Shown: positions 18,957 through 47,142 of the stretch, in pieces
How positions within the stretch are numbered: the first letter of the stretch is position 1
Layout: each line of letters opens with the position of its first letter
From: Candidatus Nomurabacteria bacterium
Lineage (GTDB): Bacteria; Patescibacteriota; Minisyncoccia; Phycocordibacterales; UBA9973
Direction of reading: 5' to 3'
Assembly (NCBI GenBank): GCA_028286485.1
Contig: JAQBRM010000027.1
Location: forward strand, 10,632-74,631
Length of the DNA stretch: 64,000 nucleotides
Program-made: the position numbers and the translations under genes
The notes under the pieces: model-generated
Told to the model about the DNA's origin: nothing
What the model saw: the letters and a program-made list of their open reading frames with translations, nothing else
The model's database searches: none

Positions 18957-19748
18957 GTGCGGTATACTTGCTCCATGGAACCACAAGAAAACCCACAAAA
19001 AGACCCTATTGAAAACAGTCCTATTAGTACCGTACCCCCAAAACCAGCCATCAGTATTGCGGCTGCCATCCTCACCGGCGCCGCCATGACCGCATTGGCA
19101 CTTATTATTGTATTGCACCCATCCAACACCGCACCAAGTCCGACCACCGGTGCCATCAGCCAACCGACTACTCCGACCACCGTTCCCGCTGCCATCGTGA
19201 CCGTGCGCCCCGGCGATGCCAATCATATTCGCGGCGATATCAATACTGCGCAAGTAGTGATATTTGAATACTCCGATAGTGACTGCCCGTTCTGCGAACA
19301 GTTTCATCCGACCCTTCAGCAAGTGGTAAGTGACTATCAAGGAAAAGTTGCGTGGGTCTATCGTTACTTCCCGCTCAGTATCCACCCCAACACTCATACC
19401 GAAGCGATTGCATTGCAATGTGCGGGCCAGCTCGGTGGGGCAAAAGGTTTCAATACCTATCTTGATACCATTATCAATATCACCCTCAATCCTGACACCA
19501 AGAGCAATGAGATGCTGACTACTATTGCGTCCCAACAGGGCTTAGACGCTACCAAGTTCAATGCTTGTCGGGCCGATCCGGCTACAGCCGCTATGGTTGA
19601 CGCAAGCAGCCAAGAAGCACAGAGCATTGGTGCACAAGGTACGCCATTCAGCATTGCCGTCAATATCAAAACCGGCAAGCAAATCATCATCCCCGGCGCA
19701 TACCCTCTCGCAGAGGTGAAAAAGGATATCGATTCCCTCCTCCAGTAA
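18957..19748 (+). CDS. DsbA-family thiol:disulfide oxidoreductase, membrane-anchored
   Basis: CPFC active site embedded in a thioredoxin fold (VVIFEYSDSDCPFCEQFHP...). N-terminal TM helix plus a Pro/Thr linker. The real start may be M7. Confidence 0.75.
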   Translation: MRYTCSMEPQENPQKDPIENSPISTVPPKPAISIAAAILTGAAMTALALIIVLHPSNTAPSPTTGAISQPTTPTTVPAAIVTVRPGDANHIRGDINTAQVVIFEYSDSDCPFCEQFHPTLQQVVSDYQGKVAWVYRYFPLSIHPNTHTEAIALQCAGQLGGAKGFNTYLDTIINITLNPDTKSNEMLTTIASQQGLDATKFNACRADPATAAMVDASSQEAQSIGAQGTPFSIAVNIKTGKQIIIPGAYPLAEVKKDIDSLLQ

Positions 19749-19756
19749 TTCATAAT

Positions 19757-19790
19757 AAAAAAAACGCTAGATCGGATCTAGCGGTTTTTT
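19757..19790. terminator. bidirectional terminator between the convergent dsbA-like and rpoD genes
   Basis: aaaaaaaacgctagatc-g-gatctagcggtttttt. Confidence 0.6.
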
Positions 19791-19795
19791 ATTAT

Positions 19796-21163
19796 TTAAT
19801 CGAAATAGTTTCGGAGGCGTTGGATGCGGTCGTTTTGCCGGAGCTTTTCGTGAACCTTGGCTTCGATTTGTCGAATACGTTCACGAGTCACGCCGAACTC
19901 CTTGCCGACTTCTTCAAGGGTGTGCTGTACCCCATCGACAAGTCCGTAGCGCATTTCCAAAATTCTTTTTTCCTTTGGAGAGAGTTCTTCCAAGACGGCC
20001 CGAATGGCATCTTGCAACATGCGACGAGAGGATTCTTGGTCGGGACGAAGGATCTTGTCATCGGCAATGAACTCACCGAAGGTAGACTTGTCTTCATCAT
20101 CACCGATCGGTGATTCAAGTGATCGCGTCTCTTGGTTGATCTGTTCGATGACGTGTACTTTCTCCACTTCAATGCCCATTTCCATGGCGATTTCTTCCGG
20201 CATCGGATCACGGCCGAGGTCTTGCCCCAAACGGCGCATGACTTGCTTGTATTTTGAAATAGTCTCAACCATGTGCACGGGAATACGGATGGTACGAGAC
20301 TGGTCGGCCAAGGCACGCGTAATGGACTGGCGAATCCACCAGGTGGCATAGGTGGAGAATTTAAAGCCCTTGGTGTAGTCGAACTTTTCCACCGCCTTGA
20401 AGAGACCGATGTTCCCTTCTTGAATCAAGTCCAAGAGCGTCAGGTCAGCGGTACGGTTGGCATACTTTTTCGCAATGGATACCACCAGACGCAGGTTGGA
20501 ACGAGCCAACAGGTTCTTGGCTTCCAAATCCCCCGCCGCAATACGCTTGGCGAATTCCTTTTCCTGTGCGGCATTGATCAACGGATACTGTCCGATATCC
20601 TTAAGGTACATCTGCACGGAGCTGAAGCTGTGGCTGTCTTTGACGTATTTTGAAAGGTCTTCATTACTATCGATATCCAGTAAGTTGCCGCCCTCCAGAA
20701 TATCAATACCGGCGATGCTGAATTTCTCATACAGCTCATCAAGAAACATGATATTGTTTTCAATATCGGGAAATGTCTTTAAAATCTCGTCATAGGTAAT
20801 GAAGCCGCGTTTCTTACCCTTGCCGATAAGTTCTTCAGACTTCACTTCCATTTCTTTCAATTTCTTTTCACTGTTGTTCTCGCGACGTGGCGGCATGCCG
20901 GCGTGACGAATAGTAATGGGTTTTGGCTTGACCTTTACTTTGGGTACCACTTTCTTGGGCGCTACTTTTTTAGCAGGAGTTTTTTTTGGAGCTTTTTTTA
21001 CTGCACGCTTTGGTGCCACTTTTTTTGCTGCCTTTTTCTTGGGCGCCGGAGCGCTCTTTTTTACTACTTTTTTTGATTGTGCTTTTTTAGCTGGTTTTTT
21101 GTTGGGCATATGTTCATTCGTATCATTATAGAAAATCACTTGAATGTCAAGCAATTGAGTCAC
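19796..21163 (-). CDS. rpoD: RNA polymerase sigma factor RpoD (primary sigma70) with a histone-H1-like K/A/P-rich N-terminal tail
   Basis: Region 2 is [27 protein letters not shown]...[35 protein letters not shown]. Region 4 is present. The N-terminus [29 protein letters not shown]... is low-complexity. An alternative start at M19 (about 21109) is possible. Confidence 0.95.
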
Positions 21164-21164
21164 G

Positions 21165-22865
21165 TCATTGCATATGACGTGACTGATTTATTTGTTGCAG
21201 GAGAGCCAGGTATTCGAGTTCTTTTACTTCATCGTTGTTTTGTTTCGCTTCGTTCATTTTCATGGCATAGCTGAAGCGCAGGTTTTCCAAGAATTGATTG
21301 ATGATGGCCGTGGAAATTTCGTGCAGTACCGCCAATCGTTGCTCGACCTCCAATGATTTATTCTCACGCTCCACGATGGCCAAGATACGTTCGCGATCGG
21401 CATCACTCAACGGCGCAAGCGGCAGTCGCTCACCATTGAATTCAAAATTTGTTACTTTTGAAATAACCGTCTCCGTTCCATCTTCCGGATACAATTCTAT
21501 GAAGGCTTGAAACCGTTCCGCGATGGAAATGCCTTCTGAGGATTTGGGAAGTGTAATCGGTGATGCCACATAAGGAATACTCACTGTTTCTTTCAGGTAG
21601 GCGATGAAATCTTCATTCACCTCTTTGGTACCCAAGCTGGATTCAGTGGCAATCGTATTGAGGTACATGTTCCGTTCAATGGATGATTGTACGCGCGCCA
21701 GAAAAGGAAATAATTTTTGACGGATACTTTGTTTCAGTTGATGGGCGGATAATGCGCTTTTTTGCAGGACATGAAGCGTGTGGAGAATGAAATGTTCACC
21801 ATGCTTCAATAATTCCTTCCAGCTGTCGGTGCCATTAGCAATGATAAAATCAGCCGGGTCCACCCCTTCCGGCAATGCCACCACCTTGGGATTCATACCC
21901 ATGGATAAGGTGACCAGTGCTGCACGTTCCATGGCTTTCTGCCCGGCACTATCGCCATCAAAGGCTAGGAAGAGGTTGGGCGTCAAGCGAGCGATGACTG
22001 ACAGCTGAGCGCTCGAATCACCGATCGTCGTTTCCGACACGGCCGTACCTGACGTTGCCACCGTATTTTTAAATCCCGCTTGATGGCTGAGCACGAGGTC
22101 CATCTGTCCTTCCACTAAAATGGCGAAGTTGTGTTTCTTGATGGCAATCTTGGCTTTATCAAAACCAAATAACACACGCGACTTTTGGAAGACTTCCGTT
22201 TCAGGACTATTAAGATACTTCGGACCTTCTTCCGTATCCGGAAACATGCGACCGGAAAACGCTACAATGCGTCCACTGCTGTCCGTTAATGGAAATATAA
22301 TGCGTCCGCGGAAGCGATCATAGTACCCTTTTTCAGTTTTTTTGATTAGTCCCGCACGTTCATAGTAGCCGTGGTTTTTCTCATCCAGTCCGCCCGCAAT
22401 AGTGCGCCACTCCATTGGGGCATACCCAATACGAAATTGCTCAATGGTTTCTTCCATCACTCCCCTTTTTTTCAAATACTCCACTGCTTCAGGATTTTTT
22501 TTCAACAGCGCCTGGTATTTCCGTGCGGCTTGTTCCAATGCATCGTAGACACTATCGGTCGGCTCGGCTGTATCATATTGAGCGGTCAGCGGTATGCCCG
22601 CTCTGTCGGCCAGCACTTTCAATGCGCCCTTGAAGTCCAATCCTTCAAACTCTTGTACGAAGTTCAGAATATCTCCCTTAGCACCGCAACCGAAGCAATA
22701 GTAAAGGCCGCGTTCCGGCGATACCGAAAACGACGCGGTCTTTTCATTATGAAACGGGCATCGGGCCTTAAACTGGGTTCCAGACGGCTCAAGCGTAATA
22801 TACGTTGAGAGGACTTCGGTAATAGGCAATCGATGTTTTATTTGTTCGATCAGCCTGTTGTCCAT
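21165..22865 (-). CDS. dnaG: DNA primase
   Basis: CHC2 zinc finger [30 protein letters not shown] and a TOPRIM domain. The track ORF extends to 22907, but the conserved start [10 protein letters not shown] is at about 22865, leaving a 4-nt gap after rpoC. Confidence 0.9.
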
Positions 22866-22869
22866 CGTT

Positions 22870-25800
22870 TTATTCGTCGTGCTTAATGTTGTTGATATCG
22901 AGCGCACTGCGTTCTCGGAAACCGGTGCCGGCAGGAATCAATCGTCCGACAGTCACATTTTCCTTCAAGCCACGGAGCGTGTCAGTACCGCCTTTTACGG
23001 CATTGGCAATGAGCACACGGTTGGTGTTCTGGAAGGAAGCGGCAGAGATCCAACTCTTGGCATTAAGCGCAGTTTGTGTAATACCGAAGATGACCAGTGC
23101 GCCTTTGGCTTCTTTCAAGCCACGTTCACGCATCTTGGCATTTTCTTCCATCAATTCCGTTGCTTCAATCACTTCTCCAGGAGAGAAGGTAGTATCACCG
23201 GTATCCTTGATTTTGCGACGAGAGAACATCTGACGAACAATGATTTCCAAGTGCTTGCGGGCGATTGAGGCGCCTTGCAATTCATACACTTTGATAATTT
23301 CACGAATGATGTAATCTTCGGCTGCTTCACGGCTGCCGTATTCGTAGACTTCCTCTACATTGGCTGATCCATCGGTCAACAATTCGCCGCCGACAATTTC
23401 TTGTCCGACTTTCACGATTGGCACGCGACGAGGACCGACAGGGTATGCAATGGACTCTTTCTTTGATTCTTCTTTCTCGGAAAGCACTATGATAGTTTTG
23501 TCGGCACCGTCTTCGGTAATTTCCAACACCGTACCGGCATATTTTGCCACTGCGGCAGGATTCTTCACCGTACGACATTCGAAGACTTCTTCCACACGAG
23601 GCAGACCTTGTGTAATGTCGACACCTGCTAGACCGCCGGCGTGGAACGTACGAAGGGTGAGCTGCGTACCCGGTTCACCGATCGCTTGCGCGGCGATGAT
23701 ACCCACGGACTCACCGCGTGCTACCAAATGGTTACGTCCCAAGTCGAGACCGTAACACTGTCGGCAAATACCGTAGATCGTCTTACACACCATTGGTGTA
23801 CGGACGAATACTTCCTTTACTCCTTTCTGGTCAATCAACATGATATCGTCTTTGGCGAGCAAGTGTCCGCGCTTGAGGATAGTAGTGCCATCCACCACGA
23901 TATCTTTTGCGAGCACACGTCCGCGAATGCTCTTGGCCAATGGAATTTCCAATCCGGAAATAACTTCTGCCACCATGCGCTTGGAGCCTTTGGTGCCACA
24001 GTCTTCTTCCGTAATGACCACATCCTGCGCCACATCAACGAGACGACGTGTCAGGTATCCGGCACGAGCGGTGTTCAACGCCGTGTCGGCCAAACCTTTA
24101 CGTGAACCGTGAGTGGTAATGAAGTATTCAATCGGTGATAGTCCTTCCTTGTATGAAGGAATAATCGGGAAATCAATCGTTCGTCCGGTAGTGTTTTGAA
24201 TCAAACCAGTCATACCCGCCATCTGCGATACCTGCGCCATAGAGCCACGGGCACCGGAGGTAACGAGGTTGTAAGTAGAACTTCCTTTCGTCATCATATC
24301 AGGCAGCAGTTTTTCAATTTCGGCCTTGGCTTTATTCCACAATGTAATTGTTTTTTCATACAATTCTTCCTTTGAAAGCAAACCATCTTCATATTGCTTT
24401 TTCATTTCCGTATCGAGTAAACGATACTTCTGCACGATCTCAGGTTTTTCTTTTGGTACGATCACGTTATCAATACCCCAAGTAGTACCGGACTGTGTCG
24501 CGTATTTGTAGCCGAATGATTTGATGCGGTCAAGAATCGGAGCGACTTCCGTCACGCCATACTTGGCAATCAAGTCATCCATGATGACGGCCATTTTCTT
24601 GGAAGTCATTTCATCTTCGATATACGGAAAGTCTGCAGGCAGAATGGCGTTGAAGAGCAATCGTCCGACGGTCGTAGGAAATGGCTTGCCGGCGAACTGC
24701 GCGTACTTTGTCTTATCGGTACCGAGCACGTGAATTTTTGCGCGGAGCGATACTTGTTCGAAGTCGTAGGTGGTGATGGCTTCGTTCGGATTGGCAAAAT
24801 ACATGCCCTCCCCTTTTTCACCATCAACATCCGCTGTCATCCAGTAACAACCTAGAATAATGTCGAGCTTGTTCACCGCCACAATAGGATCACCGTTCTG
24901 CGGTTTCAAGATATTCTTATCAGCAGCGATCAATGTCTTAGCTTCGCGCTGTGCTTCTTCAGACAATGGCAGATAGACACCCATTTGGTCACCATCGAAG
25001 TCGGCGTTGAAGGCCGGACAAACGAGTGGGTGCACCTTGATGGCATTGCCTTCTACCAGTACCGGCATGAAGGCCTGAATACCAAGTCGGTGCAAGGTCG
25101 GTGCACGGTTCAACATCACATACTTGCCCTTGATGGCTTCTTCAAGAATGGCCCAGACTTCCGGAATCCCTTCTTCAATAAGTTTGTTGGCACCACGAAT
25201 GTTGTATGCGAGCTCTTGTTCGATGATTTTTGAAATCACGAATGGACGGAAGAGTTCCAACGCCATATGTTTTGGCAGACCACATTGGTTGAGTTTCAAT
25301 GTCGGGCCGACGACGATGACAGAACGAGCGGAGTAGTCCACACGCTTACCGAGCAAGTTCTGACGGAAGAGTCCTTGCTTTGATTTCAAGTTATCAGACA
25401 ATGACTTCAGTGCACGACGCTGTGCTTGGCTCATGGCAGGACTGTCTTGTCCGGCAATGGAGTTATCAATCAATGCGTCCACTGCTTCTTGCAAGATACG
25501 CTTTTCATTACGAAGGATCACATCAGGTGCACCGATTTCTTTCAATTTTTTCAAACGATTGTTTCGGTTGATGACACGACGGTAGAGGTCGTTGATATCG
25601 GATGTAGCGTGACGGCCACCTTCCAATGCCACCATTGGGCGAATAGCTGGTGGGATCACAGGAATAACGGAAAGGAACATCCATTCTGGGCGAATGTTGG
25701 CATAGATCATGCCGCGTACGAGTGCCAAACGCTTGTTCAATTTCTCGCGTTCTGCCGCACCGGCTTTCTCAAGCATTTTTTCCGTGTGTGCTTTCACTTT

Positions 25801-26484
25801 AGCCAAATCCATATCTTTGAAGAGTTGGTAGATTGGCTCAGCACCAACACCGGCTTCAAACGCAGAACCGTATTTCAATGAGTAGTGGTGGTATGAAATT
25901 TCATTCAATACTTTTCCAACGCGAATTTCACCGATTTCTTTTTTGGTGTTGGTCAGCAAGGTGCGAAGCTTGTCGCGTGTTTCTTCATCCGCCGCGCCTT
26001 TCAATTTGTTTTTGAATTCCGCATCAAGATCGGTGATAATACGCTCACGTTCGTCTTCATGCACGATCGTAATAATGTAGCCGGCGAAGTAGACGACTTT
26101 TTCAAGATCGGTCAGAGAGACGTTGAGCAAGATACTCATACGAGATGGTACGCCGCGCAGGAACCAGATGTGTGCTACCGGAGAGGCCAGCTCGATGTGG
26201 CCCATACGATCACGGCGAACGATGGACTGGGTGACTTCCACGCCACATTTCTCACAGATAATACCGGCGTATCGAATACGCTTGTACTTGCCACAGTAAC
26301 ATTCATAGTCTTTCTCGGGACCGAAGATGCGTTCGTCGAAGAGACCGCCGCGTTCACTGCGTCCGGTACGGTAGTTGATGGTTTCCGGCTTGGTTACTTC
26401 ACCAAAACTCCATTCGCGAATGCGATCAGGGCTTGCGAGCTTCAGACTGATTGAGTTAAAATTTGTTGTGTCGAGTGTTTTCAT
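22870..26484 (-). CDS. rpoC: DNA-directed RNA polymerase subunit beta'
   Basis: Zinc-binding CYCGKYKRIRYAGIICEKCGVEV and the catalytic NADFDGD motif. 1204 aa. Confidence 0.97.
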   Translation of the reverse strand: MKTLDTTNFNSISLKLASPDRIREWSFGEVTKPETINYRTGRSERGGLFDERIFGPEKDYECYCGKYKRIRYAGIICEKCGVEVTQSIVRRDRMGHIELASPVAHIWFLRGVPSRMSILLNVSLTDLEKVVYFAGYIITIVHEDERERIITDLDAEFKNKLKGAADEETRDKLRTLLTNTKKEIGEIRVGKVLNEISYHHYSLKYGSAFEAGVGAEPIYQLFKDMDLAKVKAHTEKMLEKAGAAEREKLNKRLALVRGMIYANIRPEWMFLSVIPVIPPAIRPMVALEGGRHATSDINDLYRRVINRNNRLKKLKEIGAPDVILRNEKRILQEAVDALIDNSIAGQDSPAMSQAQRRALKSLSDNLKSKQGLFRQNLLGKRVDYSARSVIVVGPTLKLNQCGLPKHMALELFRPFVISKIIEQELAYNIRGANKLIEEGIPEVWAILEEAIKGKYVMLNRAPTLHRLGIQAFMPVLVEGNAIKVHPLVCPAFNADFDGDQMGVYLPLSEEAQREAKTLIAADKNILKPQNGDPIVAVNKLDIILGCYWMTADVDGEKGEGMYFANPNEAITTYDFEQVSLRAKIHVLGTDKTKYAQFAGKPFPTTVGRLLFNAILPADFPYIEDEMTSKKMAVIMDDLIAKYGVTEVAPILDRIKSFGYKYATQSGTTWGIDNVIVPKEKPEIVQKYRLLDTEMKKQYEDGLLSKEELYEKTITLWNKAKAEIEKLLPDMMTKGSSTYNLVTSGARGSMAQVSQMAGMTGLIQNTTGRTIDFPIIPSYKEGLSPIEYFITTHGSRKGLADTALNTARAGYLTRRLVDVAQDVVITEEDCGTKGSKRMVAEVISGLEIPLAKSIRGRVLAKDIVVDGTTILKRGHLLAKDDIMLIDQKGVKEVFVRTPMVCKTIYGICRQCYGLDLGRNHLVARGESVGIIAAQAIGEPGTQLTLRTFHAGGLAGVDITQGLPRVEEVFECRTVKNPAAVAKYAGTVLEITEDGADKTIIVLSEKEESKKESIAYPVGPRRVPIVKVGQEIVGGELLTDGSANVEEVYEYGSREAAEDYIIREIIKVYELQGASIARKHLEIIVRQMFSRRKIKDTGDTTFSPGEVIEATELMEENAKMRERGLKEAKGALVIFGITQTALNAKSWISAASFQNTNRVLIANAVKGGTDTLRGLKENVTVGRLIPAGTGFRERSALDINNIKHDE

Positions 26485-26512
26485 AATGGTTTTTATTTAA
26501 TGAGGCGTGGAG

Positions 26513-29500
26513 TTAATTTTCTACTTCTGTTGCTGATGCGTCGACCGGATTTGATTGCAACAGTTCTACGTCCAGTGATAATCCTCGCAAGTAGTTCAAC
26601 ATGACCGAGAATGAGGCCGGCACATTAGGCTCGCCTATTTTTTCATTCTTGATGATGGCGTCAAATGTTGCGGCACGTCCGCGAATATCATCGGATTTGA
26701 TCGTGAGCATTTCACGAAGGGTGTGCGCTGCACCGTATCCTTCCAATGCCCAGACCTCCATTTCTCCGAAACGCTGACCACCGCCTTGCGCCTTACCGCC
26801 CAATGGCTGCTGCGTAATGAGACTGTATGGCCCGATGGAACGCATGTGAATCTTGTCTTCCACCATGTGGTGCAGTTTCAAAATATACATATATCCCACG
26901 GCAATATCTTGTTCAAACTTATCACCGGTTCGTCCATCGAAGAGTGGTACACGACCGTTGGCAGGGAAACCCGCTTTGACCAATTCTTCTTTGATTTCTG
27001 CATCAGTAGCACCGGAGAATGGTGGCACGATGGCTTGGTAGCCCAACTCGTTTGCAGCCATACCCAAGTGTAGTTCCAGGATTTGTCCGAGGTTCATACG
27101 TGATGGCACACCGAGCGGTGTTAGTACAACGTCTACCGGGGTACCGTCTGCCATGTATGGCATATCTTCTTCAGGTAATACAACGGAGATAACTCCCTTG
27201 TTACCGTGACGTCCTGCCAGCTTGTCACCGACTGAAATATTTCGAAGCTGTGCCACTTCAATGACGATTTTCTTGATCACACCGGATTCAAGCGTGTGTC
27301 CTTGGTCGCGTGAGAATACTTTCACACGAATGATACGTCCGCGCTTGCCGTGATCCATTTTCAATGACGTGTCTTTCACATCACGCGCTTTCTCGGCGAA
27401 GATACTGCGGAGCAAACGTTCTTCCGGAGTGAGTTCTGTCTCGCCTTTTGGCGTGATTTTACCCACGAGGATGTCCCCTTCTTTCACTTCCGCACCGACA
27501 CGAATGATACCGTCTTCATCAAGATCTTTCAGACGAGCTTCACCGACGTTTGGAATATCACGTGTGGTTACTTCCGGTCCGAGCTTGGTATCACGCACCA
27601 CACAGATGAATTCCGCGATATAAATAGAGGTGAATTTTGAATTCTTAATCAATCGTTCTGACAGAATGATCGCGTCTTCGAAGTTTGCACCGTTCCAACT
27701 CATGAATGCCACCATCATGTTCTGGCCGAGCGCGATTTGACCGCGATCAGTAGTAGAGGTATCGGCAAGCAATTCCCCCTTCTTGACTTTCTGTCCCATG
27801 GACACAACCGGACGCTGGTGAAAGGCGTTGAAGTTGTTGTTACGCTGGAATGACACAAGGCTGTAGGAATGATCTTTGCCTTTCTCGTCCTTGACGGTAA
27901 TTTTTGATGCATCAACGAAGGTGATTTCTCCCGCTTCTTGTGCTTGCACGAGACGGCCGGAATATGGTGCGGCATCTTCTTCGACACCCGTCGCCACGAA
28001 TGGTGCTTCAGGGCAAATAAGCGGCACGGCTTGTCGTTGCATGTTACTGCCCATCAATGCACGGTTGGCATTGTTGTGTTCAATGAACGGAATCATGGAA
28101 GTACCGACTGAGAACGCCTGGTTCGGCGCTACGTCGATGTAGTCCACTTCATCCTTGCGCACGATGCCTGGGTTGGTACGGATACGCGCTTCCACTTCAT
28201 CAGGCAAGTTGCCTTTGTCATCATAGCGAGTACCGGCATGCGCAATAATGCACTTCTCTTCTTCTGCCGCATTGAGGTAGGCCACTTCGCCGGTGATTTT
28301 GCCATTCTTCACTTTCACATATGGGGTCTCAATAATACCGAATGCGTTCACGCGAGCGTAAATAGACAGACGCAAAATCAAACCGATGTTCGGACCTTCC
28401 GGTGTTTGGATCGGACAAACGCGACCGTAGTGAGATGGGTGCACGTCACGCACTTCAAGGGTAGCGCGTTCACGTGTCAGACCGCCGGGACCAAGGGCAG
28501 AAAGGGTACGTAGTTCTTCAAGCTCGGACAAGACGTTCTCTTGCTGCATGAACTGAGAGAGCTGGTTGGTGGTAAAAAATTCTTTGATGCGAGCTTGCAA
28601 TGGGCGCTGGTTAACCACCTGAATAGGCAATGCATTCGTTGCATCGATAGTAGACATACGGTCCTGCACGTTACGCTTGATCTGAGTCAGACCAACGTAG
28701 ACTTTTTGCTGGAGCATTTCACCAACGAAACGCACGCGACGTGAACTGAGGTTATCAATGTCATCAGGGCGAGAGCCGGGAGTGTTATTCAATGCAATGA
28801 TGTTGTTGACGATCAATGCCAAGTCAGCCGCGGAGAGGGTCTTGCGTTCCATTTCTTTATCAGACATGTCGAGCTCGAAACGCTTGTTGAAACGAAAACG
28901 TCCAACAGCTGAGAGGTCGTAACGCTCTTCTGAGAAGAGGTTGTTGACGAAGTCACGAGCGTTATCAGCAGTCGCGAGGTCGCCGTCACGGAGCTTACGG
29001 TAGATTTCCACGAAAGCTTCGCCAGGGGTTTTTGCTACGTCCTTTTCCAATGAGTGAGTGATGAGCGCGTTTGCTACCGGATTAGGAAAATGTTTTTTGA
29101 TTTCTTCATCAGTGGCCAAACCGAGGGCGCGCAAAAGAGACACAACAGGGAATTTGCGCTTTTTGTCGATACGCACGTAGACCGTGCCATCAGGATCGGA
29201 TTCGATTTCAATCCACACACCGCGGTTAGGAATGATTTTAGCACCGAAGAAACGCTTGCCTTTGACTTCCAGCTCGGTGAAAAAGACACCGGATGAACGA
29301 GAGAGTTGTGGAATGATGGAACGTTCAACACCGTTGATGATGAATGTGCCGTGTGGAGTCATGACCGGCAGGTCAGCCATGAAAATTTCCTGTTCTTTTT
29401 CGGAACCGGTTTGCTTGTTGGTGAGTTTTACGCGAGCCTTGATTTGCGCTTCGAGAGAGAGCTTGTTTTCCTTACAATGATGTTCATCATTTTTCGGTTC

Positions 29501-29719
29501 AACAACGTGGAATGAGACGAAGTCCAGCTGGAACTTCTTGCCGGAGTAGTCATTGATGGGAGTGAATTCCTTGAAGACTTCCTTCAGGCCTTTCTCAATG
29601 AGCCAGTTGAATGAATCAAGCTGGTGCTGAATAAGGTTTGGGAATGGTACGAGGGGTTTTTTATACTTCGAAAAGTACTTTTTTGGACGAACGTCGGTGC
29701 TTTTTATAATTTTACTCAT
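26513..29719 (-). CDS. rpoB: DNA-directed RNA polymerase subunit beta
   Basis: Conserved Rpb2-like domains and the C-terminal GGQRFGEMEVWALEGYGAAHTLREMLTIKSDD. 1068 aa. Confidence 0.97.
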   Translation of the reverse strand: MSKIIKSTDVRPKKYFSKYKKPLVPFPNLIQHQLDSFNWLIEKGLKEVFKEFTPINDYSGKKFQLDFVSFHVVEPKNDEHHCKENKLSLEAQIKARVKLTNKQTGSEKEQEIFMADLPVMTPHGTFIINGVERSIIPQLSRSSGVFFTELEVKGKRFFGAKIIPNRGVWIEIESDPDGTVYVRIDKKRKFPVVSLLRALGLATDEEIKKHFPNPVANALITHSLEKDVAKTPGEAFVEIYRKLRDGDLATADNARDFVNNLFSEERYDLSAVGRFRFNKRFELDMSDKEMERKTLSAADLALIVNNIIALNNTPGSRPDDIDNLSSRRVRFVGEMLQQKVYVGLTQIKRNVQDRMSTIDATNALPIQVVNQRPLQARIKEFFTTNQLSQFMQQENVLSELEELRTLSALGPGGLTRERATLEVRDVHPSHYGRVCPIQTPEGPNIGLILRLSIYARVNAFGIIETPYVKVKNGKITGEVAYLNAAEEEKCIIAHAGTRYDDKGNLPDEVEARIRTNPGIVRKDEVDYIDVAPNQAFSVGTSMIPFIEHNNANRALMGSNMQRQAVPLICPEAPFVATGVEEDAAPYSGRLVQAQEAGEITFVDASKITVKDEKGKDHSYSLVSFQRNNNFNAFHQRPVVSMGQKVKKGELLADTSTTDRGQIALGQNMMVAFMSWNGANFEDAIILSERLIKNSKFTSIYIAEFICVVRDTKLGPEVTTRDIPNVGEARLKDLDEDGIIRVGAEVKEGDILVGKITPKGETELTPEERLLRSIFAEKARDVKDTSLKMDHGKRGRIIRVKVFSRDQGHTLESGVIKKIVIEVAQLRNISVGDKLAGRHGNKGVISVVLPEEDMPYMADGTPVDVVLTPLGVPSRMNLGQILELHLGMAANELGYQAIVPPFSGATDAEIKEELVKAGFPANGRVPLFDGRTGDKFEQDIAVGYMYILKLHHMVEDKIHMRSIGPYSLITQQPLGGKAQGGGQRFGEMEVWALEGYGAAHTLREMLTIKSDDIRGRAATFDAIIKNEKIGEPNVPASFSVMLNYLRGLSLDVELLQSNPVDASATEVEN

Positions 29720-29930
29720 AGCTATCTAAACGCAAAAATGCCTCACGGGGCCTCCCGAGGGCGTTATCTATAAAAATCTCTCTAATCTACAGCGTTTTCT
29801 ACCGCAACCATTCCACAATCTGTAAGAGCACCAGTATAAGCAAAAGATGACTCTTTGTCAAACGATTTCACTCTTATCTCTCTTTGATCTTTAAATATTC
29901 TTGATCACTAAAATTATATGATGGAGCTGC

Positions 29931-30368
29931 ATGATTAAAGCTCAAAAAAGTGATTTTTTCAGAATCAAGAGATTGGTAAAGATTTACTACAATCTTAGAC
30001 AGGGAGAATTAATAGGACGACATACGGAATTACTGTTTTTATTTAAAATTAAGAACCCAAATCACCCCCATCATCACTTCGAGGTATACATCTCTCGGAT
30101 GTCCTTAAAACATTTTGTTGAGAGGAGAAAAGAGGAATTTAGTAAGAATAATTCTGAAGATACCGCCCTATCTCTTATTTATAAAATCCTTGATAAAACC
30201 CATGATGTTATGATCAATTTTGATTCTTATAAATTTGAATTATCAAATAAGCATTTTTATGATAAGGAATATTTCCTCAGTCCAACCCATGCGCGTATTC
30301 TGAGGATATTGCTGGAAATTAAAGAAAACAGGCTAGAAATAATATCAATGCATTTTAGAAGAAAATAA
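29931..30368 (+). CDS. hypothetical protein (AT-rich orphan)
   Basis: 145-aa ORF with no recognisable domain, followed by a hairpin at about 30367..30396. It sits where rplJ-rplL normally precede rpoB. Confidence 0.35.
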   Translation: MIKAQKSDFFRIKRLVKIYYNLRQGELIGRHTELLFLFKIKNPNHPHHHFEVYISRMSLKHFVERRKEEFSKNNSEDTALSLIYKILDKTHDVMINFDSYKFELSNKHFYDKEYFLSPTHARILRILLEIKENRLEIISMHFRRK

Positions 30369-30512
30369 AAATACCCCCTTTCGGTGGTATTTTTATTTAT
30401 AGCAAGGAGCGTTGGCGGTTCGCTCATGAGTACCCTCTTTCGAAGGTCCGCAGCAAGCCATTTCTGTCGTCAAGCTATATAAATATACTATCAAAACGAA
30501 AGAAAAACGCAA

Positions 30513-31199
30513 CTAGATTTTTTTACTTTTTTGCTGTGTTTTACGCCATTCCTCGATTTTCTTGTGGTCACCGGAGATAAGGACAGGAGGAACTTTGTGT
30601 TTTTTGCCTTTTATAGTTTTCGTTGTTTTTGGAAATTCCAGAATTTCAGGACGGGTGAAGACGCGAGGGCTGGCAGTGCGGTTTTCTTCCACAGAGGCAT
30701 GATCACCCAGCACGCCGGGGATTTGGCGGCAGATAGCGTCGGTCATGATCAATGCGGGCAGTTCCCCACCAGTCAGGACGAAATCTCCTACGGAGATTTC
30801 GTCCGCTTTCAAAATCTTGCGCACCCGGTCATCCACTCCTTCATACCGTCCGCAAATAAAGACAATATCGCTGTACTGCTTGGCCATTTTTGCCGCCATG
30901 GCATTGGTAAACAGTTTGCCTGACGGTGACAGCATCACCACTTTTACTTCCGACTTAGAAGCTGAGCTTCTAAGTTTCAGTTTGGAGTAGGTGCGCAGGA
31001 TCGGCTCGGGTGTCATGACCATGCCTGGACCGCCGCCGTAGGGTCGTTCATCCACTTTTTTGTGCTTGTCCAAGCTGTAGTCGCGAATATTCTTCACATC
31101 AAAAGAAATAGCTCCTTTTAAACTGGCTCTTTTCAGTATTGCTTCTCCCAGATAACTTTCGATCATGTCGGGGAATATTGTCAGGAAATGGAATTTCAT
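30513..31199 (-). CDS. trmD: tRNA (guanine37-N1)-methyltransferase
   Basis: MKFHFLTIFPDMIESYL...ERPYGGGPGMVM SPOUT trefoil-knot motifs. Confidence 0.9.
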   Translation of the reverse strand: MKFHFLTIFPDMIESYLGEAILKRASLKGAISFDVKNIRDYSLDKHKKVDERPYGGGPGMVMTPEPILRTYSKLKLRSSASKSEVKVVMLSPSGKLFTNAMAAKMAKQYSDIVFICGRYEGVDDRVRKILKADEISVGDFVLTGGELPALIMTDAICRQIPGVLGDHASVEENRTASPRVFTRPEILEFPKTTKTIKGKKHKVPPVLISGDHKKIEEWRKTQQKSKKI

Positions 31200-31504
31200 T
31201 ACAGGTCTTTCAAGTCGGCCATGGCGTCATCAAGGTTGGCGACATCGGGCTGTTTTTCGTAGCCAGCCGGTTCATTGATTTTAAGGTTGACGCGGGCATT
31301 GTTTTTCATGCCGACAACGCGGAGGAGGGTGCGGATGGCTTTGGCGGTATTACCGGAGCGGCCGATAATTTTGCCCATATCGGCTTGGTTTATGGAAAGG
31401 GTAAGAAGCACGCCCATTTCATCGACCGTGCGGTCGATGCGAACGTCATTTGGGTTATCAACAAGGGCTTTTATGAGCATTTCGAGAAATTCTTTGTCAG
31501 ACAT
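31199..31504 (-). CDS. KH-domain RNA-binding protein (YlqC/UPF0109 family)
   Basis: KH GxxG motif IIGRSGNTAKAIRTLL. Classic position between rpsP and trmD. Confidence 0.8.
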   Translation of the reverse strand: MSDKEFLEMLIKALVDNPNDVRIDRTVDEMGVLLTLSINQADMGKIIGRSGNTAKAIRTLLRVVGMKNNARVNLKINEPAGYEKQPDVANLDDAMADLKDL

Positions 31505-31623: not shown

Positions 31624-31929
31624 CTACTTCTTTTTCAGCTCTTTTCGTGCAACAGTCGGAGATTTACGGGAGAGGACGTTCTTGGCCCGTCCTTCAACCA
31701 ATCCTTCCTTTACCAGCATATTGTGCGCGGTATCGGAAACCTGTGCTCCATTGGAAATCCAGTGAGTAATGCGCTCGCGCTTCAGTACGACGGTATTGCT
31801 CTTCACGGTATAGGAACCGAGAATTTCCAAGAACTTGCCGCTTTGTGGGCCGTTTTTAGAGTCCGTCACTACGAGACGGAAGGCTGGTTCATTTTTGCGC
31901 CCGATGCGCTGTAATCGAATCTTTAACAT
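31624..31929 (-). CDS. rpsP: 30S ribosomal protein S16
   Basis: MLKIRLQRIGRKNEPAFRLVVTDSKNGPQSGKFLEILGSY. The real start is the internal M of the 31986 ORF. Confidence 0.9.
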   Translation of the reverse strand: MLKIRLQRIGRKNEPAFRLVVTDSKNGPQSGKFLEILGSYTVKSNTVVLKRERITHWISNGAQVSDTAHNMLVKEGLVEGRAKNVLSRKSPTVARKELKKK

Positions 31930-32015
31930 GTAGCGCTCATCGTAGCAGACAAAAGAAAAAGTGTCAAAACCTTGCGGTTTTGACACTTTAAATAAAACTA
32001 GCCTTTAGAGGACTT

Positions 32016-44873: not shown

Positions 44874-45458
44874 CTACGAAAGGCGGGGGTTTTTTGGTGC
44901 ATTACTGCCGGTCGTGGCAATAGCCTTTTGTAATAAGGCAATACCTCGCCGATAGAGGCTTTTCACTGTATTGAGGGGCTTGCCTGTGACGCCGGAAATT
45001 TCTTCAAATGTCAGATCATCTTCGGCACGCAATATCAAAATTTCACGGTACACAACCGGTAACTGTTCAATGGCCGTATTGAGATTTTCCTTCCGCTCTC
45101 GGGCAATAGCTATTTCTATAATATCAATACTCTCATCCTCAAAAACCGCATCGGCTTCTCCTTCTTCACTGAAATAAGAGAAGGGAATATTTTTCTTTTT
45201 ACGAAGGTGGTCAATGGCGGTATTGCGCGCAATTCGAAAGAGCCACGGGCGAAGACCGGAGCCTCCTTTGAAACGACCCAACTGACGCCAAACCTTAATG
45301 AAGGTTTCTTGAACAATATCTTCAGCTGCGCTGGTATTGTGTACAAACCGATAGACATAGCTATAAATGCCGGCAAAATGCCGCTCGATCAATATGACGA
45401 GTGCGGCTTCATTCCCTTTTCGGTAGGCATCGATAAGCTGCTCGTCTGATTGTTCCAT
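44874..45458 (-). CDS. ECF-type RNA polymerase sigma factor (sigma70 regions 2 and 4)
   Basis: Region 2 AEDIVQETFIKVWRQL...RPWLFRIARNTAIDHLRK. Region 4 LPVVYREILILRAEDDLTFEEISGVTGKPLNTVKSLYRRG. Confidence 0.85.
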   Translation of the reverse strand: MEQSDEQLIDAYRKGNEAALVILIERHFAGIYSYVYRFVHNTSAAEDIVQETFIKVWRQLGRFKGGSGLRPWLFRIARNTAIDHLRKKKNIPFSYFSEEGEADAVFEDESIDIIEIAIARERKENLNTAIEQLPVVYREILILRAEDDLTFEEISGVTGKPLNTVKSLYRRGIALLQKAIATTGSNAPKNPRLS

Positions 45459-45487: not shown

Positions 45488-46381
45488 TTACTGAGGGAGA
45501 AATTTGAAACCCTGCATGATACTGTTGAGATCATTATGAACCTGTACCGAATTATAAGCACTGACCCCCATGCTTGGGTCAAAATTTGCCAATACGACAT
45601 AGTGAATAGTGTATTCAATGGCATAACACTGACCGTTACGCACCGTACGATAACTGGTGGTTTCATATCGATTGCCCGCACCCGCATCAGTGGAGACAAA
45701 GGTGGTATACGGTACGCCATTAATGGTAGTAGCGGATTTAGTTACGCCGTTACCGCTGATATCGTTCAAACAATTTGTAACGGCCTTGGGATCACTGGAA
45801 GTACCGACGGTGAACTTGGCATCACCGAAATTTGTTTTCGGCTGATAACTTTGCGGTACATTCACGGTGGCTAAAACAAGTCCCAATGTGCCATCACTAT
45901 TGGCTTTCCAATCTTGTGTGTAGCCAATGCCGCCGCCCGCCAAGCTGAAAGCTTGAGGGTACGTAAAGGTAAATGTCTTGCCCTGATCGGTGAAGGATTT
46001 CAAACCGTTAGTAGCAGTACCGGCGGTGCCGGTCAGACAATTATTATAGGTGGTGGCAGTACCCTCTTTCAAAAATGCTTGGTCGCCTTTATTAATAAAT
46101 AATATGGTCCCTTGCTGGTACTGTGCGCCATCCGCGGCAATAATTTGAGGCAATGTAAGGTGACGCCCGTCAGAAAGAGTCAGATTTACACTACCATCAG
46201 AAAAGCTTGCGGTGATAGTACTGCCGCTATCACAGGTAAACAATGCGGTGGCAGTCACGGGCTGAGTAACCGGTGGAATCGCTGCCGGAATCGGAGTCGA
46301 CCCTTTATGCACAAAGCTGTACCCTACGATGAGCACCAATACCAATAATACGATATAAAATACCATTCTTTTAAATGTCAT
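45488..46381 (-). CDS. secreted/membrane-anchored protein with an N-terminal MliC-like (lysozyme-inhibitor fold) domain and an unknown C-terminal domain
   Basis: N-terminal TM helix. ALFTCDSGSTITASFSDGSVNLTLSDGRHLTLPQIIAADGAQYQ resembles the MliC family. The remainder is G/T-rich with no match. Confidence 0.45.
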   Translation of the reverse strand: MTFKRMVFYIVLLVLVLIVGYSFVHKGSTPIPAAIPPVTQPVTATALFTCDSGSTITASFSDGSVNLTLSDGRHLTLPQIIAADGAQYQQGTILFINKGDQAFLKEGTATTYNNCLTGTAGTATNGLKSFTDQGKTFTFTYPQAFSLAGGGIGYTQDWKANSDGTLGLVLATVNVPQSYQPKTNFGDAKFTVGTSSDPKAVTNCLNDISGNGVTKSATTINGVPYTTFVSTDAGAGNRYETTSYRTVRNGQCYAIEYTIHYVVLANFDPSMGVSAYNSVQVHNDLNSIMQGFKFLPQ

Positions 46382-46414
46382 ACATTCAGTATACGCCCCT
46401 CTTTACAGATAGCA

Positions 46415-47142
46415 AAATAAATGGGGACAGGCCCCTTTTTAGTTTTTCTTTAACGGTCATATGTAATGATAGAGAAATGCCAAGACAACCAAGAAATGAT
46501 ACTGGTAATCGAATCTATCATGTAATTAATCGAGCAAATGCGCGGCTTAAAATATTTGAAAGTGACTCAGATTATGAGCTTTTTGAGAATTTATTAATGA
46601 AAGCCCTGAGTCGTTTTTCCATAAAACTATATGCATATACCAATATGCCCAATCATTTCCATTTAGTGCTTTATTCTGAAAAACCTGCTGAGGTTTCAAA
46701 ATTCATGCACTGGTTAAGCGGTGCTTTTACCCAACATTGGCATACTCGACATGCCACCATGGGAAGCGGTCATCTATTTCAAGGCCGGTACAAATCATTT
46801 CCTATTCAAAATGGAAACCACTTACTGCAAGTATTGTTATATGTTGAACGAAATGCAGTTCGTGCAAAATTAGTTAAAAGAGCGGAAGAATGGAGATGGT
46901 GTAGTGCGTGGATAAGAAAATACGGAAATGAAAAGCAAAAGAAAATGCTTTCAGAATGGCCTATTGATGTGCCCAAAGATTATTTGAATGTTTTAAATAA
47001 AACCGATGATGAAAATATTTTAAAAGACATTAGATTCTCTATTACAAAAAGTGTTTCTATTGGGTCAGAGGGAAAAAGACCGCGAGGGCGACCTAGAAAG
47101 AAATAAAGATATTCTAAAAAGGGGCCTGTCCCCATTTATTTA
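46415..47142. mobile_element. REP–RAYT–REP unit: IS200-like Y1 (HuH) transposase gene flanked by perfect 28-bp inverted REP-like termini
   Basis: Left end aaataaatggggacaggcccctttttag. Right end ctaaaaaggggcctgtccccatttattt is its exact reverse complement. Each end contains a GGGGaCAGGCCCC hairpin. The interior is AT-rich. Confidence 0.7.
46477..47106 (+). CDS. REP-associated tyrosine transposase (RAYT; IS200/IS605 TnpA-like Y1 HuH transposase)
   Basis: HuH motif MPNHFHLVLY and a catalytic Tyr context LLYVERNAVRAKL (Y1_Tnp family pattern). The start MPRQPRND lies internal to the 46375 track ORF, which reads through the left REP. Confidence 0.8.
   Translation: MPRQPRNDTGNRIYHVINRANARLKIFESDSDYELFENLLMKALSRFSIKLYAYTNMPNHFHLVLYSEKPAEVSKFMHWLSGAFTQHWHTRHATMGSGHLFQGRYKSFPIQNGNHLLQVLLYVERNAVRAKLVKRAEEWRWCSAWIRKYGNEKQKKMLSEWPIDVPKDYLNVLNKTDDENILKDIRFSITKSVSIGSEGKRPRGRPRKK

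Follow-up and report, generated by a model that had tools for sequence, protein, structure and literature searches.

A conserved rpoB-rpoC-dnaG-rpoD gene block in a deep Parcubacteria-group clade: a probable fusion of two known operon types

Organization of the gene block

The window analyzed here is a 64,000-nt stretch of contig JAQBRM010000027.1 (positions 10,632 to 74,631) in a metagenome-assembled genome (MAG) of Candidatus Nomurabacteria (GCA_028286485.1). In it, the genes for the beta and beta' subunits of RNA polymerase (RNAP), DNA primase, and the primary sigma factor (rpoB, rpoC, dnaG, and rpoD, respectively) lie head to tail on the minus strand as one co-directional block, as seen in a six-frame listing of open reading frames (ORFs) and their Pfam domains (Table 1). 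An earlier description made from the letters alone (referred to as the sequence-only reading) had reported four consecutive genes on one strand, and both the Pfam identities and the direct reading of the junctions agree with it. RpoD carries regions 1.1, 1.2, 2, 3, and 4, all found by Pfam, as a group-1 sigma factor does, and DnaG has the residues of a bacterial primase, with C36/H39/C57/C60, E252-G253, and D303/D305 invariant or nearly so in alignments. DnaG shares 100% identity with a public MAG protein named “dnaG [Candidatus Nomurabacteria bacterium]”, a taxon that NCBI places in the Parcubacteria group of the Patescibacteria group. The longest dnaG ORF (21165-22907, starting at GTG 22907) overlaps rpoC, and this longer start is not needed.

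Directly downstream of rpoD is a bidirectional intrinsic terminator, which is shared with a convergent DsbA-like gene (18957-19748, plus strand) and is the only canonical minus-strand intrinsic terminator called by a terminator scan within 19000-31500. The sequence-only reading had found no terminator before the end of rpoD; this holds for canonical terminators, while two hairpins between dnaG and rpoD and a terminator-like hairpin in the rpoB leader, both discussed below, had been overlooked.

Table 1. Genes and predicted elements of the rpoB-rpoC-dnaG-rpoD locus, with positions counted in the window.
Feature	Position	Strand	Description
rpsP	31624..31986	-	ribosomal protein S16; Pfam Ribosomal_S16; rpsP in the same position in relatives
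khpA-like KH-domain gene	31199..31504	-	Pfam KH_KhpA-B, E 6.8e-21
trmD	30513..31199	-	tRNA m1G37 methyltransferase; Pfam tRNA_m1G_MT, E 1.4e-46; last co-directional gene ahead of rpoB
AT-rich orphan ORF	29931..30368	+	145 aa; public callers 30099-30368, 89 aa; not part of the operon
rpoB promoter-like site	29833..29861	-	TTGACA-17-TATACT; 11/12 consensus matches, best sigma-70-type match in the region
GATTGTG	29814..29820	-	window version of GATTGAG; fixed-distance motif downstream of the rpoB promoter
Leader hairpin	29728..29762	-	GCCCTCGGGAGGCCCCGTGAGGC then ATTTTTGCGTTT; attenuator-like intrinsic terminator, ends 9 nt before the rpoB ATG
rpoB	26513..29719	-	RNAP beta, 1068 aa; Pfam Rpb2 domains 1, 2, 3, 45, 6, 7
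rpoC	22870..26484	-	RNAP beta', 1204 aa; Pfam Rpb1 domains 1-5
dnaG	21165..22865	-	DNA primase, 566 aa; Pfam Zn_ribbon_DnaG, DNAG_N, Toprim
Hairpin 1	21158..21184	-	11-bp perfect inverted repeat AGTCACGTCAT/ATGACGTGACT across the dnaG stop codon
Hairpin 2	21134..21156	-	10 bp with two G-U pairs, then UUUUCUAUAAU; 5' arm and loop contain the TTGACA box
Internal promoter-like site	21122..21150	-	TTGACA-17-AATGAT; 10/12 matches, second best in the region; ahead of rpoD
rpoD	19796..21109	-	primary sigma factor, 437 aa from ATG 21109; Pfam Sigma70_r1_1, r1_2, r2, r3, r4
Intrinsic terminator	19765..19783	.	bidirectional; 8-bp stem, CGCTAGATCCGATCTAGCG and T8 on minus, T-run on plus; directly 3' of rpoD

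Distribution of the block among bacteria

We surveyed the neighborhood of dnaG by DnaG-anchored scans with 10-kb flanks in one genome per GTDB species and in JGI and ENA metagenomes. The anchor peptide patterns are near-universal, and 160 loci from many phyla were among the matches listed, which represent a sample and not a census. Loci were scored by tblastn with the four proteins of the window, and a negative score required at least 1.5 kb of sequence upstream of dnaG. Among the matches listed, rpoC was found upstream of dnaG on the same strand in 33 loci and was not ahead of dnaG in 108 loci with at least 1.5 kb upstream; 23 loci had too little upstream sequence to be scored. The negatives, likewise among the matches listed, comprise Saccharibacteria (L016, L024), WWE3 (L021), Uhrbacteria (L014), and about 100 loci from other phyla, with the other classes of Patescibacteria sampled only as unlabelled metagenome contigs. 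Across the 160 sampled loci, dnaG is generally adjacent to rpoD. The positives number at least 40 in total when the scans, six look-up loci, and one contig listed without DNA are counted together with the window's own contig, and the at least 39 further loci with the same order come from JGI, ENA, NCBI, and Logan assemblies and include contigs of 150-720 kb.

In a neighbor-joining tree of 121 loci, built from 676 aligned columns of DnaG and RpoD, all 33 positives that were placed fall on one side of a single split. This side has 36 tips and not a single negative, the other three tips being loci with less than 1.5 kb of upstream sequence. Relatives with 79-52% DnaG identity to the window share a common neighborhood consisting of rpsP, khpA, trmD, a variable ORF, rpoB, rpoC, dnaG, rpoD, a reversed DsbA gene, and a GT2 gene, and where contigs end short of rpsP-khpA-trmD, the part that is present matches it. 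The most divergent positives (L009 and L004, with 38-41% DnaG identity) have close relatives labelled Kaiserbacteria, Parcubacteria group, Paceibacterota, or Minisyncoccia, and the order rpsP-khpA-trmD-(variable)-rpoB-rpoC-dnaG-rpoD recurs in two such Kaiserbacteria-like genomes, found on contigs of 152 and 723 kb.

The gene order thus represents a derived character shared within a deep Parcubacteria-group clade, whose members carry Nomurabacteria, Zambryskibacteria, Kaiserbacteria, and Paceibacterota/Minisyncoccia labels; it is neither private to the genome of the window nor a general trait of Patescibacteria. The sequence-only reading had called the arrangement unusual and a possible lineage marker. 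Both statements stand, the former with none of the 108 loci outside the clade having rpoC ahead of dnaG (among the matches listed), and the latter at the level of the clade, with 33 of 33 positives on the tree in one group free of negatives. It had also named a condition under which the arrangement would be unremarkable, namely that it is common in the host phylum: the block is common in the host lineage and is absent from the other Patescibacteria lineages sampled.

Two loci do not fit this pattern readily. L005, with a Kaiserbacteria label and a position inside the positive clade on the tree, shows no rpoC in the 1,025 nt (1-1025) upstream of its DnaG match, and L120 (1-3090), which is not on the tree and encodes a partial RpoD 73% identical to that of the window, has no rpoC in the 3 kb upstream of dnaG. 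They may be exceptions that arose by secondary loss, or may have larger insertions.

The rpoB-rpoC and rpoC-dnaG junctions

By direct reading, the TAA stop codon of rpoB is followed after 28 nt by the rpoC start codon (ATG 26484), and the TAA of rpoC (22872-22870) is followed by AACG and the dnaG start codon (ATG 22865), leaving a gap of 4 nt (junction TAAAACGATG). Both distances are those given in the sequence-only reading. The gap between rpoB and rpoC ranges from -8 to 67 nt in 28 related loci. All seven close relatives have a gap of 0-6 nt between rpoC and dnaG, and of 37 loci, 22 have one of at most 30 nt. Gene-sized insertions of 668-2477 nt separate rpoC from dnaG in seven loci, and in six of the seven the inserted genes lie on the same strand as the block.

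A lone PemK/MazF-like toxin gene lies co-directionally between rpoC and dnaG in L088 (9358-9774, by Pfam) and L094 (7697-8083, similar by eye). The insertions also encode a PsbP_2-like secreted protein (L087, L090, L106) or a Cys-rich protein of 585 aa that matches no Pfam family (L090, L094, L096).

No Shine-Dalgarno sequence is present in the 4-nt gap between rpoC and dnaG, and conservation over the last 150 nt of rpoC is of the codon type only, with no conserved promoter box. We considered an internal dnaG promoter within rpoC, based on a 9/12 match at 22985, and rejected it, the surrounding sequence being conserved only codon-wise. The simplest reading appears to be that dnaG is translationally coupled to rpoC and has no independent promoter. 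Because a Shine-Dalgarno sequence is lacking and the start codon lies 0-6 nt past the rpoC stop codon in close relatives, dnaG would be translated by termination-reinitiation.

The dnaG-rpoD junction

The TGA of dnaG (21167-21165) is separated by 1 nt from GTG 21163, the start of the longest rpoD ORF (19796-21163), and this was the basis of a 1-nt dnaG-rpoD gap in the sequence-only reading. In all 28 relatives examined, RpoD starts with Met followed by a Lys-rich tail (MKKK..., MAKK..., MPNKKP...), and in the window this start corresponds to ATG 21109 (MPNKKPAKK...), which is also used by one public gene call (L002). Since all 28 relatives start in this way, rpoD most likely starts at ATG 21109 and not at GTG 21163, so that the 1-nt gap holds only for the longest ORF and the spacer is most likely 55 nt. 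Across the clade, the dnaG-rpoD spacing was measurable in 31 loci; it is -1 to 13 nt in 15 of them and 15-115 nt in the others.

In the window (RpoD residues 1-90; 20840-21109, minus strand) and in the RpoD N-termini of 32 related loci, the tail is a 60-100-aa lysine-rich, acid-poor extension ahead of region 1.1, and in the first 60 residues K and R together make up 42% and D and E 2%. The lysine-rich tail is a broader trait than the gene block, being also present in neighboring CPR-like (candidate phyla radiation-like) lineages that do not have the block.

The 55-nt spacer and the end of dnaG contain two hairpins and a promoter-like site (Table 1). The combined folding energy of hairpins 1 and 2 is -23.3 kcal/mol (z -3.2), and a weak U-rich tail comes after them. 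A counterpart of hairpin 1 is present in L165, L166, and L167 (9-11 bp) and in L083 (8 bp), with its sequence changed and its position kept; a counterpart of hairpin 2, with G-U pairs, is present in L165, L166, and L168. Folding z-scores of the junction are between -2 and -4 in six of seven relatives (-0.9 in L083). All seven close relatives have the TTGAC and RATGAT boxes at fixed spacing and also a conserved ATACGAAT block before the rpoD ATG. Promoter matches of this quality occur about once per 9 kb of the window, which corresponds to a probability of about 0.006 that a given 55-nt spacer has one on the right strand. With transcription starting about 7 nt past the box, the rpoD leader would be about 6 nt long.

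Judging from these elements, the junction probably combines an extra rpoD promoter with a transcript punctuation signal, the former being analogous in its proposed role to the internal sigA/rpoD promoters of the macromolecular-synthesis (MMS) operon (PMC2824700).

The promoter and leader of rpoB

The best sigma-70-type promoter match of the region lies ahead of rpoB. Its TTGACA box and the TA-A-T of its -10 box are invariant in seven close relatives despite diverged flanks, and a TTGAC-N16-19-TAnnnT box is found ahead of rpoB in 22 loci. The leader that would start there is about 110 nt long and ends in the terminator-like hairpin listed in Table 1. Within the leader, GGCATTTTT-CGTT is invariant in the seven relatives save for position 10 (G in six, T in L083), and the stem of the terminator has five pairs with compensatory changes. 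Hairpin-plus-T-run elements are also present in the leaders of most distant clade members, and where an intrinsic terminator was detected in the leaders of the clade, it lies 19-148 nt upstream of the rpoB start codon. The trmD stop codon abuts the rpoB promoter in several relatives, and therefore the leader element would be the first terminator for upstream read-through as well.

A second element of the leader is GATTGAG. Among 21 loci with a detected rpoB promoter, 17 have it starting 10-18 nt past the -10 box; the remaining four, all close relatives of the window, have a divergent variant at the same position. Unlike this distance, the length of the leader varies between loci, from 66 to 284 nt. 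GATTGAG frequently takes the form of tandem ATTGA repeats, with an inverted TCAAT following 12-20 nt downstream (e.g., L096 1163-1200, L104 2858-2895, and L003 943-980). A stem around GATTGAG, differing in sequence between subgroups, is visible in many sequences (mean best stem 6 bp); tested sequence by sequence, it is no better than in shuffled flanks (median p 0.41), and RNAalifold on a MAFFT alignment gave no consensus pairs around GATTGAG. The element may be an RNA loop or a DNA operator.

At gathering thresholds, Rfam matched only two tRNAs in the window and nothing in the leaders of the seven relatives; a search of the rpoB leader of the window at E values up to 10 returned only noise, with nothing below E = 4. 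The conserved leader with its putative attenuator and the fixed GATTGAG element are undescribed and testable. We tentatively suggest, as a possibility that we hold to be doubtful, that this clade-wide two-part leader (GAUUGAG and terminator) is an autoregulatory attenuator controlling the fused operon. Under such autoregulation, which is an equally speculative step, RNAP, the sigma factor, or a partner protein might set the joint output of beta, beta', primase, and sigma.

Upstream neighborhood

The genes upstream of the block are rpsP, khpA, and trmD. The absence of L10 and L7/L12 genes upstream of rpoB, claimed in the sequence-only reading, was confirmed: no L10, L7/L12, L11, L1, or NusG domain was found by Pfam in the ORFs scanned (1-57.6 kb). 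The AT-rich orphan ORF that it had placed there is indeed AT-rich, with a GC content of 30.6% vs. 46.8% for the window; it is encoded on the plus strand, opposite to and divergent from rpoB, in a variable slot, and does not replace rplJL. This ORF matched no Pfam or PADLOC family, even at E = 1. In relatives, the slot between trmD and the rpoB promoter is occupied by an AIPR abortive-infection gene (L170, 1611-2747), a response-regulator gene, or a pilin-like gene (L168, 1-889), and in further relatives by small unknown ORFs; in L165 and L083, the slot lies at 666-944 and 2637-2918, respectively. Given these different occupants, the trmD-rpoB slot is a site of variable insertion and no substitute for rplJL.

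Between the trmD stop codon and the orphan ORF, about 85 nt within 30368-30480 (minus strand) fold well (z -3.0) and are followed by a hairpin and T-run, read from the sequence 3' of trmD at about 30396-30370. This stretch has a sub-threshold Rfam match to skipping-rope RNA (18.9 bits vs. a gathering score of 36.7) and no copy in the related loci by blastn. It may encode a small RNA, or may only be a long 3' untranslated region with a terminator; as a candidate small RNA it was set aside, as it is not conserved in relatives. Further away, about 25 kb from rpoD, are an ECF-type sigma factor gene (44874-45458, minus strand) and, near it, an IS200-like Y1 transposase gene (46375-47106, plus strand).

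Comparison with known operons

Most bacteria encode the RNAP core, the primary sigma factor, and primase in two separately regulated operons. In E. coli, the first of these, rplKAJL-rpoBC, has an internal attenuator between rplL and rpoB, and the terminator-like attenuator predicted from sequence just ahead of the block's rpoB resembles it in position. The block is also similar to this operon in having rpoC directly 3' of rpoB on the same strand and ribosome-related genes upstream, which in the block are rpsP-khpA-trmD. Unlike the rplKAJL-rpoBC locus, which is widely conserved (PMC12993453), the block is without rplK, rplA, rplJ, and rplL within at least 28 kb on either side, its rpoB has a conserved promoter and leader of its own, and it runs past rpoC into dnaG and rpoD.

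The second is the MMS operon, consisting of rpsU-dnaG-rpoD in E. coli and yqxD/serp1129-dnaG-sigA in Bacillus and Staphylococcus, in which the region upstream of dnaG differs between phyla and which has internal sigA promoters in Gram-positive bacteria (PMC2824700). The block is similar to it in that the primary sigma gene is directly 3' of dnaG, that the region ahead of dnaG is the variable part, and that a candidate extra sigma promoter lies at or near the end of dnaG, together with RNA structure at the dnaG-rpoD junction. Instead of rpsU or a small ORF, rpoC lies 4 nt ahead of dnaG in the block, with no terminator or promoter between dnaG and the gene ahead, and the block thereby joins the catalytic subunits of RNAP with sigma and primase. 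Other Patescibacteria (Saccharibacteria L024 and L016, WWE3 L021, and Uhrbacteria L014) likewise keep dnaG next to rpoD, some of them with a Lys-rich sigma N-terminus. Unlike in the block, their dnaG is preceded by recA-recX, a gene for a PEP-utilising enzyme, or a methyltransferase gene, and there is no rpoB or rpoC within 4-10 kb upstream of it.

The block therefore lacks the upstream genes of both operons (rplJL and rpsU) and has the gene adjacencies of both, and for this reason we file it as a fusion of known operon types. Specifically, we consider it probable that the block is a clade-wide fusion of the rpoBC half of the ribosomal-protein/RNAP operon with the dnaG-rpoD half of the MMS operon. 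We found no account of rpoC-dnaG adjacency or of an MMS operon in the CPR in full-text literature, a searchable library only and not proof of novelty; this clade-specific operon fusion is apparently undescribed. Nothing in the block is mechanistically surprising, and the roles of the four proteins are unchanged by their arrangement.

Proposed expression of the block and alternative explanations

Co-transcription, attenuation, translational coupling, and the internal promoter are features that we infer from the sequence. Transcription would start from the conserved sigma-70-type promoter ahead of rpoB (TTGACA-17-TATACT, 29861..29833) and proceed through the leader of about 110 nt, where the GC hairpin and U-run before the rpoB ATG could act as a partial terminator or attenuator that sets the output; in relatives without a separate trmD terminator, the same element may also damp read-through from upstream. 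Transcription would then continue uninterrupted across rpoB, rpoC, and dnaG, and dnaG would probably be translated by termination-reinitiation, tying primase to a fixed fraction of beta'. In Nomurabacteria-type lineages, the two hairpins between dnaG and rpoD would punctuate the transcript, through processing, stabilization, or partial termination, and the conserved TTGACA-17-RATGAT promoter would contribute further rpoD transcripts whose leader is only about 6 nt long. In many other clade members the dnaG-rpoD spacer is 1-13 nt, and there plain co-transcription is implied. The unit would be closed by the strong bidirectional terminator past rpoD. A single transcription unit is plausible for rpoB-rpoC-dnaG and probably incomplete for rpoD: a one-unit idea is probably too simple, given the dnaG-rpoD gap of about 55 nt with its conserved hairpins and -35/-10-like box.

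Several observations weigh against this account of the block. The rpoC-dnaG gaps of 78-420 nt in Kaiserbacteria-like members and an opposite-strand ORF between rpoC and dnaG in L109 mean that operon continuity is not universal across the clade. The leader of the window taken alone folds no better than shuffled sequence (z +0.77). At the dnaG-rpoD junction, the TTGAC box shares sequence with hairpin 2 and could therefore be conserved as an RNA stem and not as a -35 element.

The same junction also admits a division into two or more units, in which the tandem hairpins at the end of dnaG terminate the rpoB-rpoC-dnaG transcript and rpoD depends almost entirely on its own promoter. In that case the four genes would be neighbors and not one operon, at least in the lineage of the window. 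Two stable hairpins over and just after the dnaG stop codon, their positions kept in close relatives, the UUUUCUAUAAU tract that follows them, and the conserved -35/-10-like box immediately downstream are what such a division would look like. Yet the U-tract is weak, hairpin 2 has only two G-C pairs, and neither was called by the terminator scan; many clade members have dnaG-rpoD spacers of 1-13 nt, with no room for a terminator or promoter; and co-transcription of dnaG and rpoD is the norm in other bacteria (PMC2824700). On balance we regard separate units as unlikely, and we hold the same view of the four genes being mere neighbors in the lineage of the window.

An improbable alternative, which we rate well below a division into separate units, is that the block is neutral frozen synteny, a single rearrangement kept in genomes that are small and seldom recombine, with the genes functionally uncoupled and each one, or each pair, having its own unrecognised promoter. 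The clade tolerates rpoC-dnaG insertions of 0.7-2.5 kb and the wider Kaiserbacteria-like gaps, as would be expected of uncoupled genes, and 9/12 promoter-like matches do occur inside genes, at about the rate expected by chance. In the lineage of the window, however, gaps of 0-6 nt leave no room for a promoter, and the 3' end of rpoC, conserved codon-wise only, has no conserved promoter box. Moreover, the block has the same order and strand even at 38% DnaG identity, whereas the contents of the trmD-rpoB slot change freely, and six of the seven gene-sized insertions are on the block's strand. As for an artefact of assembly or binning, or a rearrangement confined to this genome, the origin of the window in a MAG is the only point in its favor; the at least 39 other loci with the same order in JGI, ENA, NCBI, and Logan assemblies, some of them on contigs of 150-720 kb, and an identical locus in a second assembly (L001) have already refuted it through recurrence across assemblies. 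We retain the clade-wide operon fusion as the probable explanation of the block.

Implications

Judged on this sample, the block is a binary synteny marker for a deep Parcubacteria-group clade, and could help to place fragmentary MAGs or check their quality. If the rpoB leader is indeed an autoregulatory attenuator, it would represent a new class of cis-regulatory element that is absent from Rfam. In these organisms with very small genomes and few regulators, the RNAP core, sigma, and primase would be hard-wired into one unit, and provided that the leader and junction elements function as suggested here, a single attenuator would determine how much transcription and priming machinery is made. 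If true, this would be a concrete case of how ultra-small bacteria balance their transcription and priming machines without the usual regulators.

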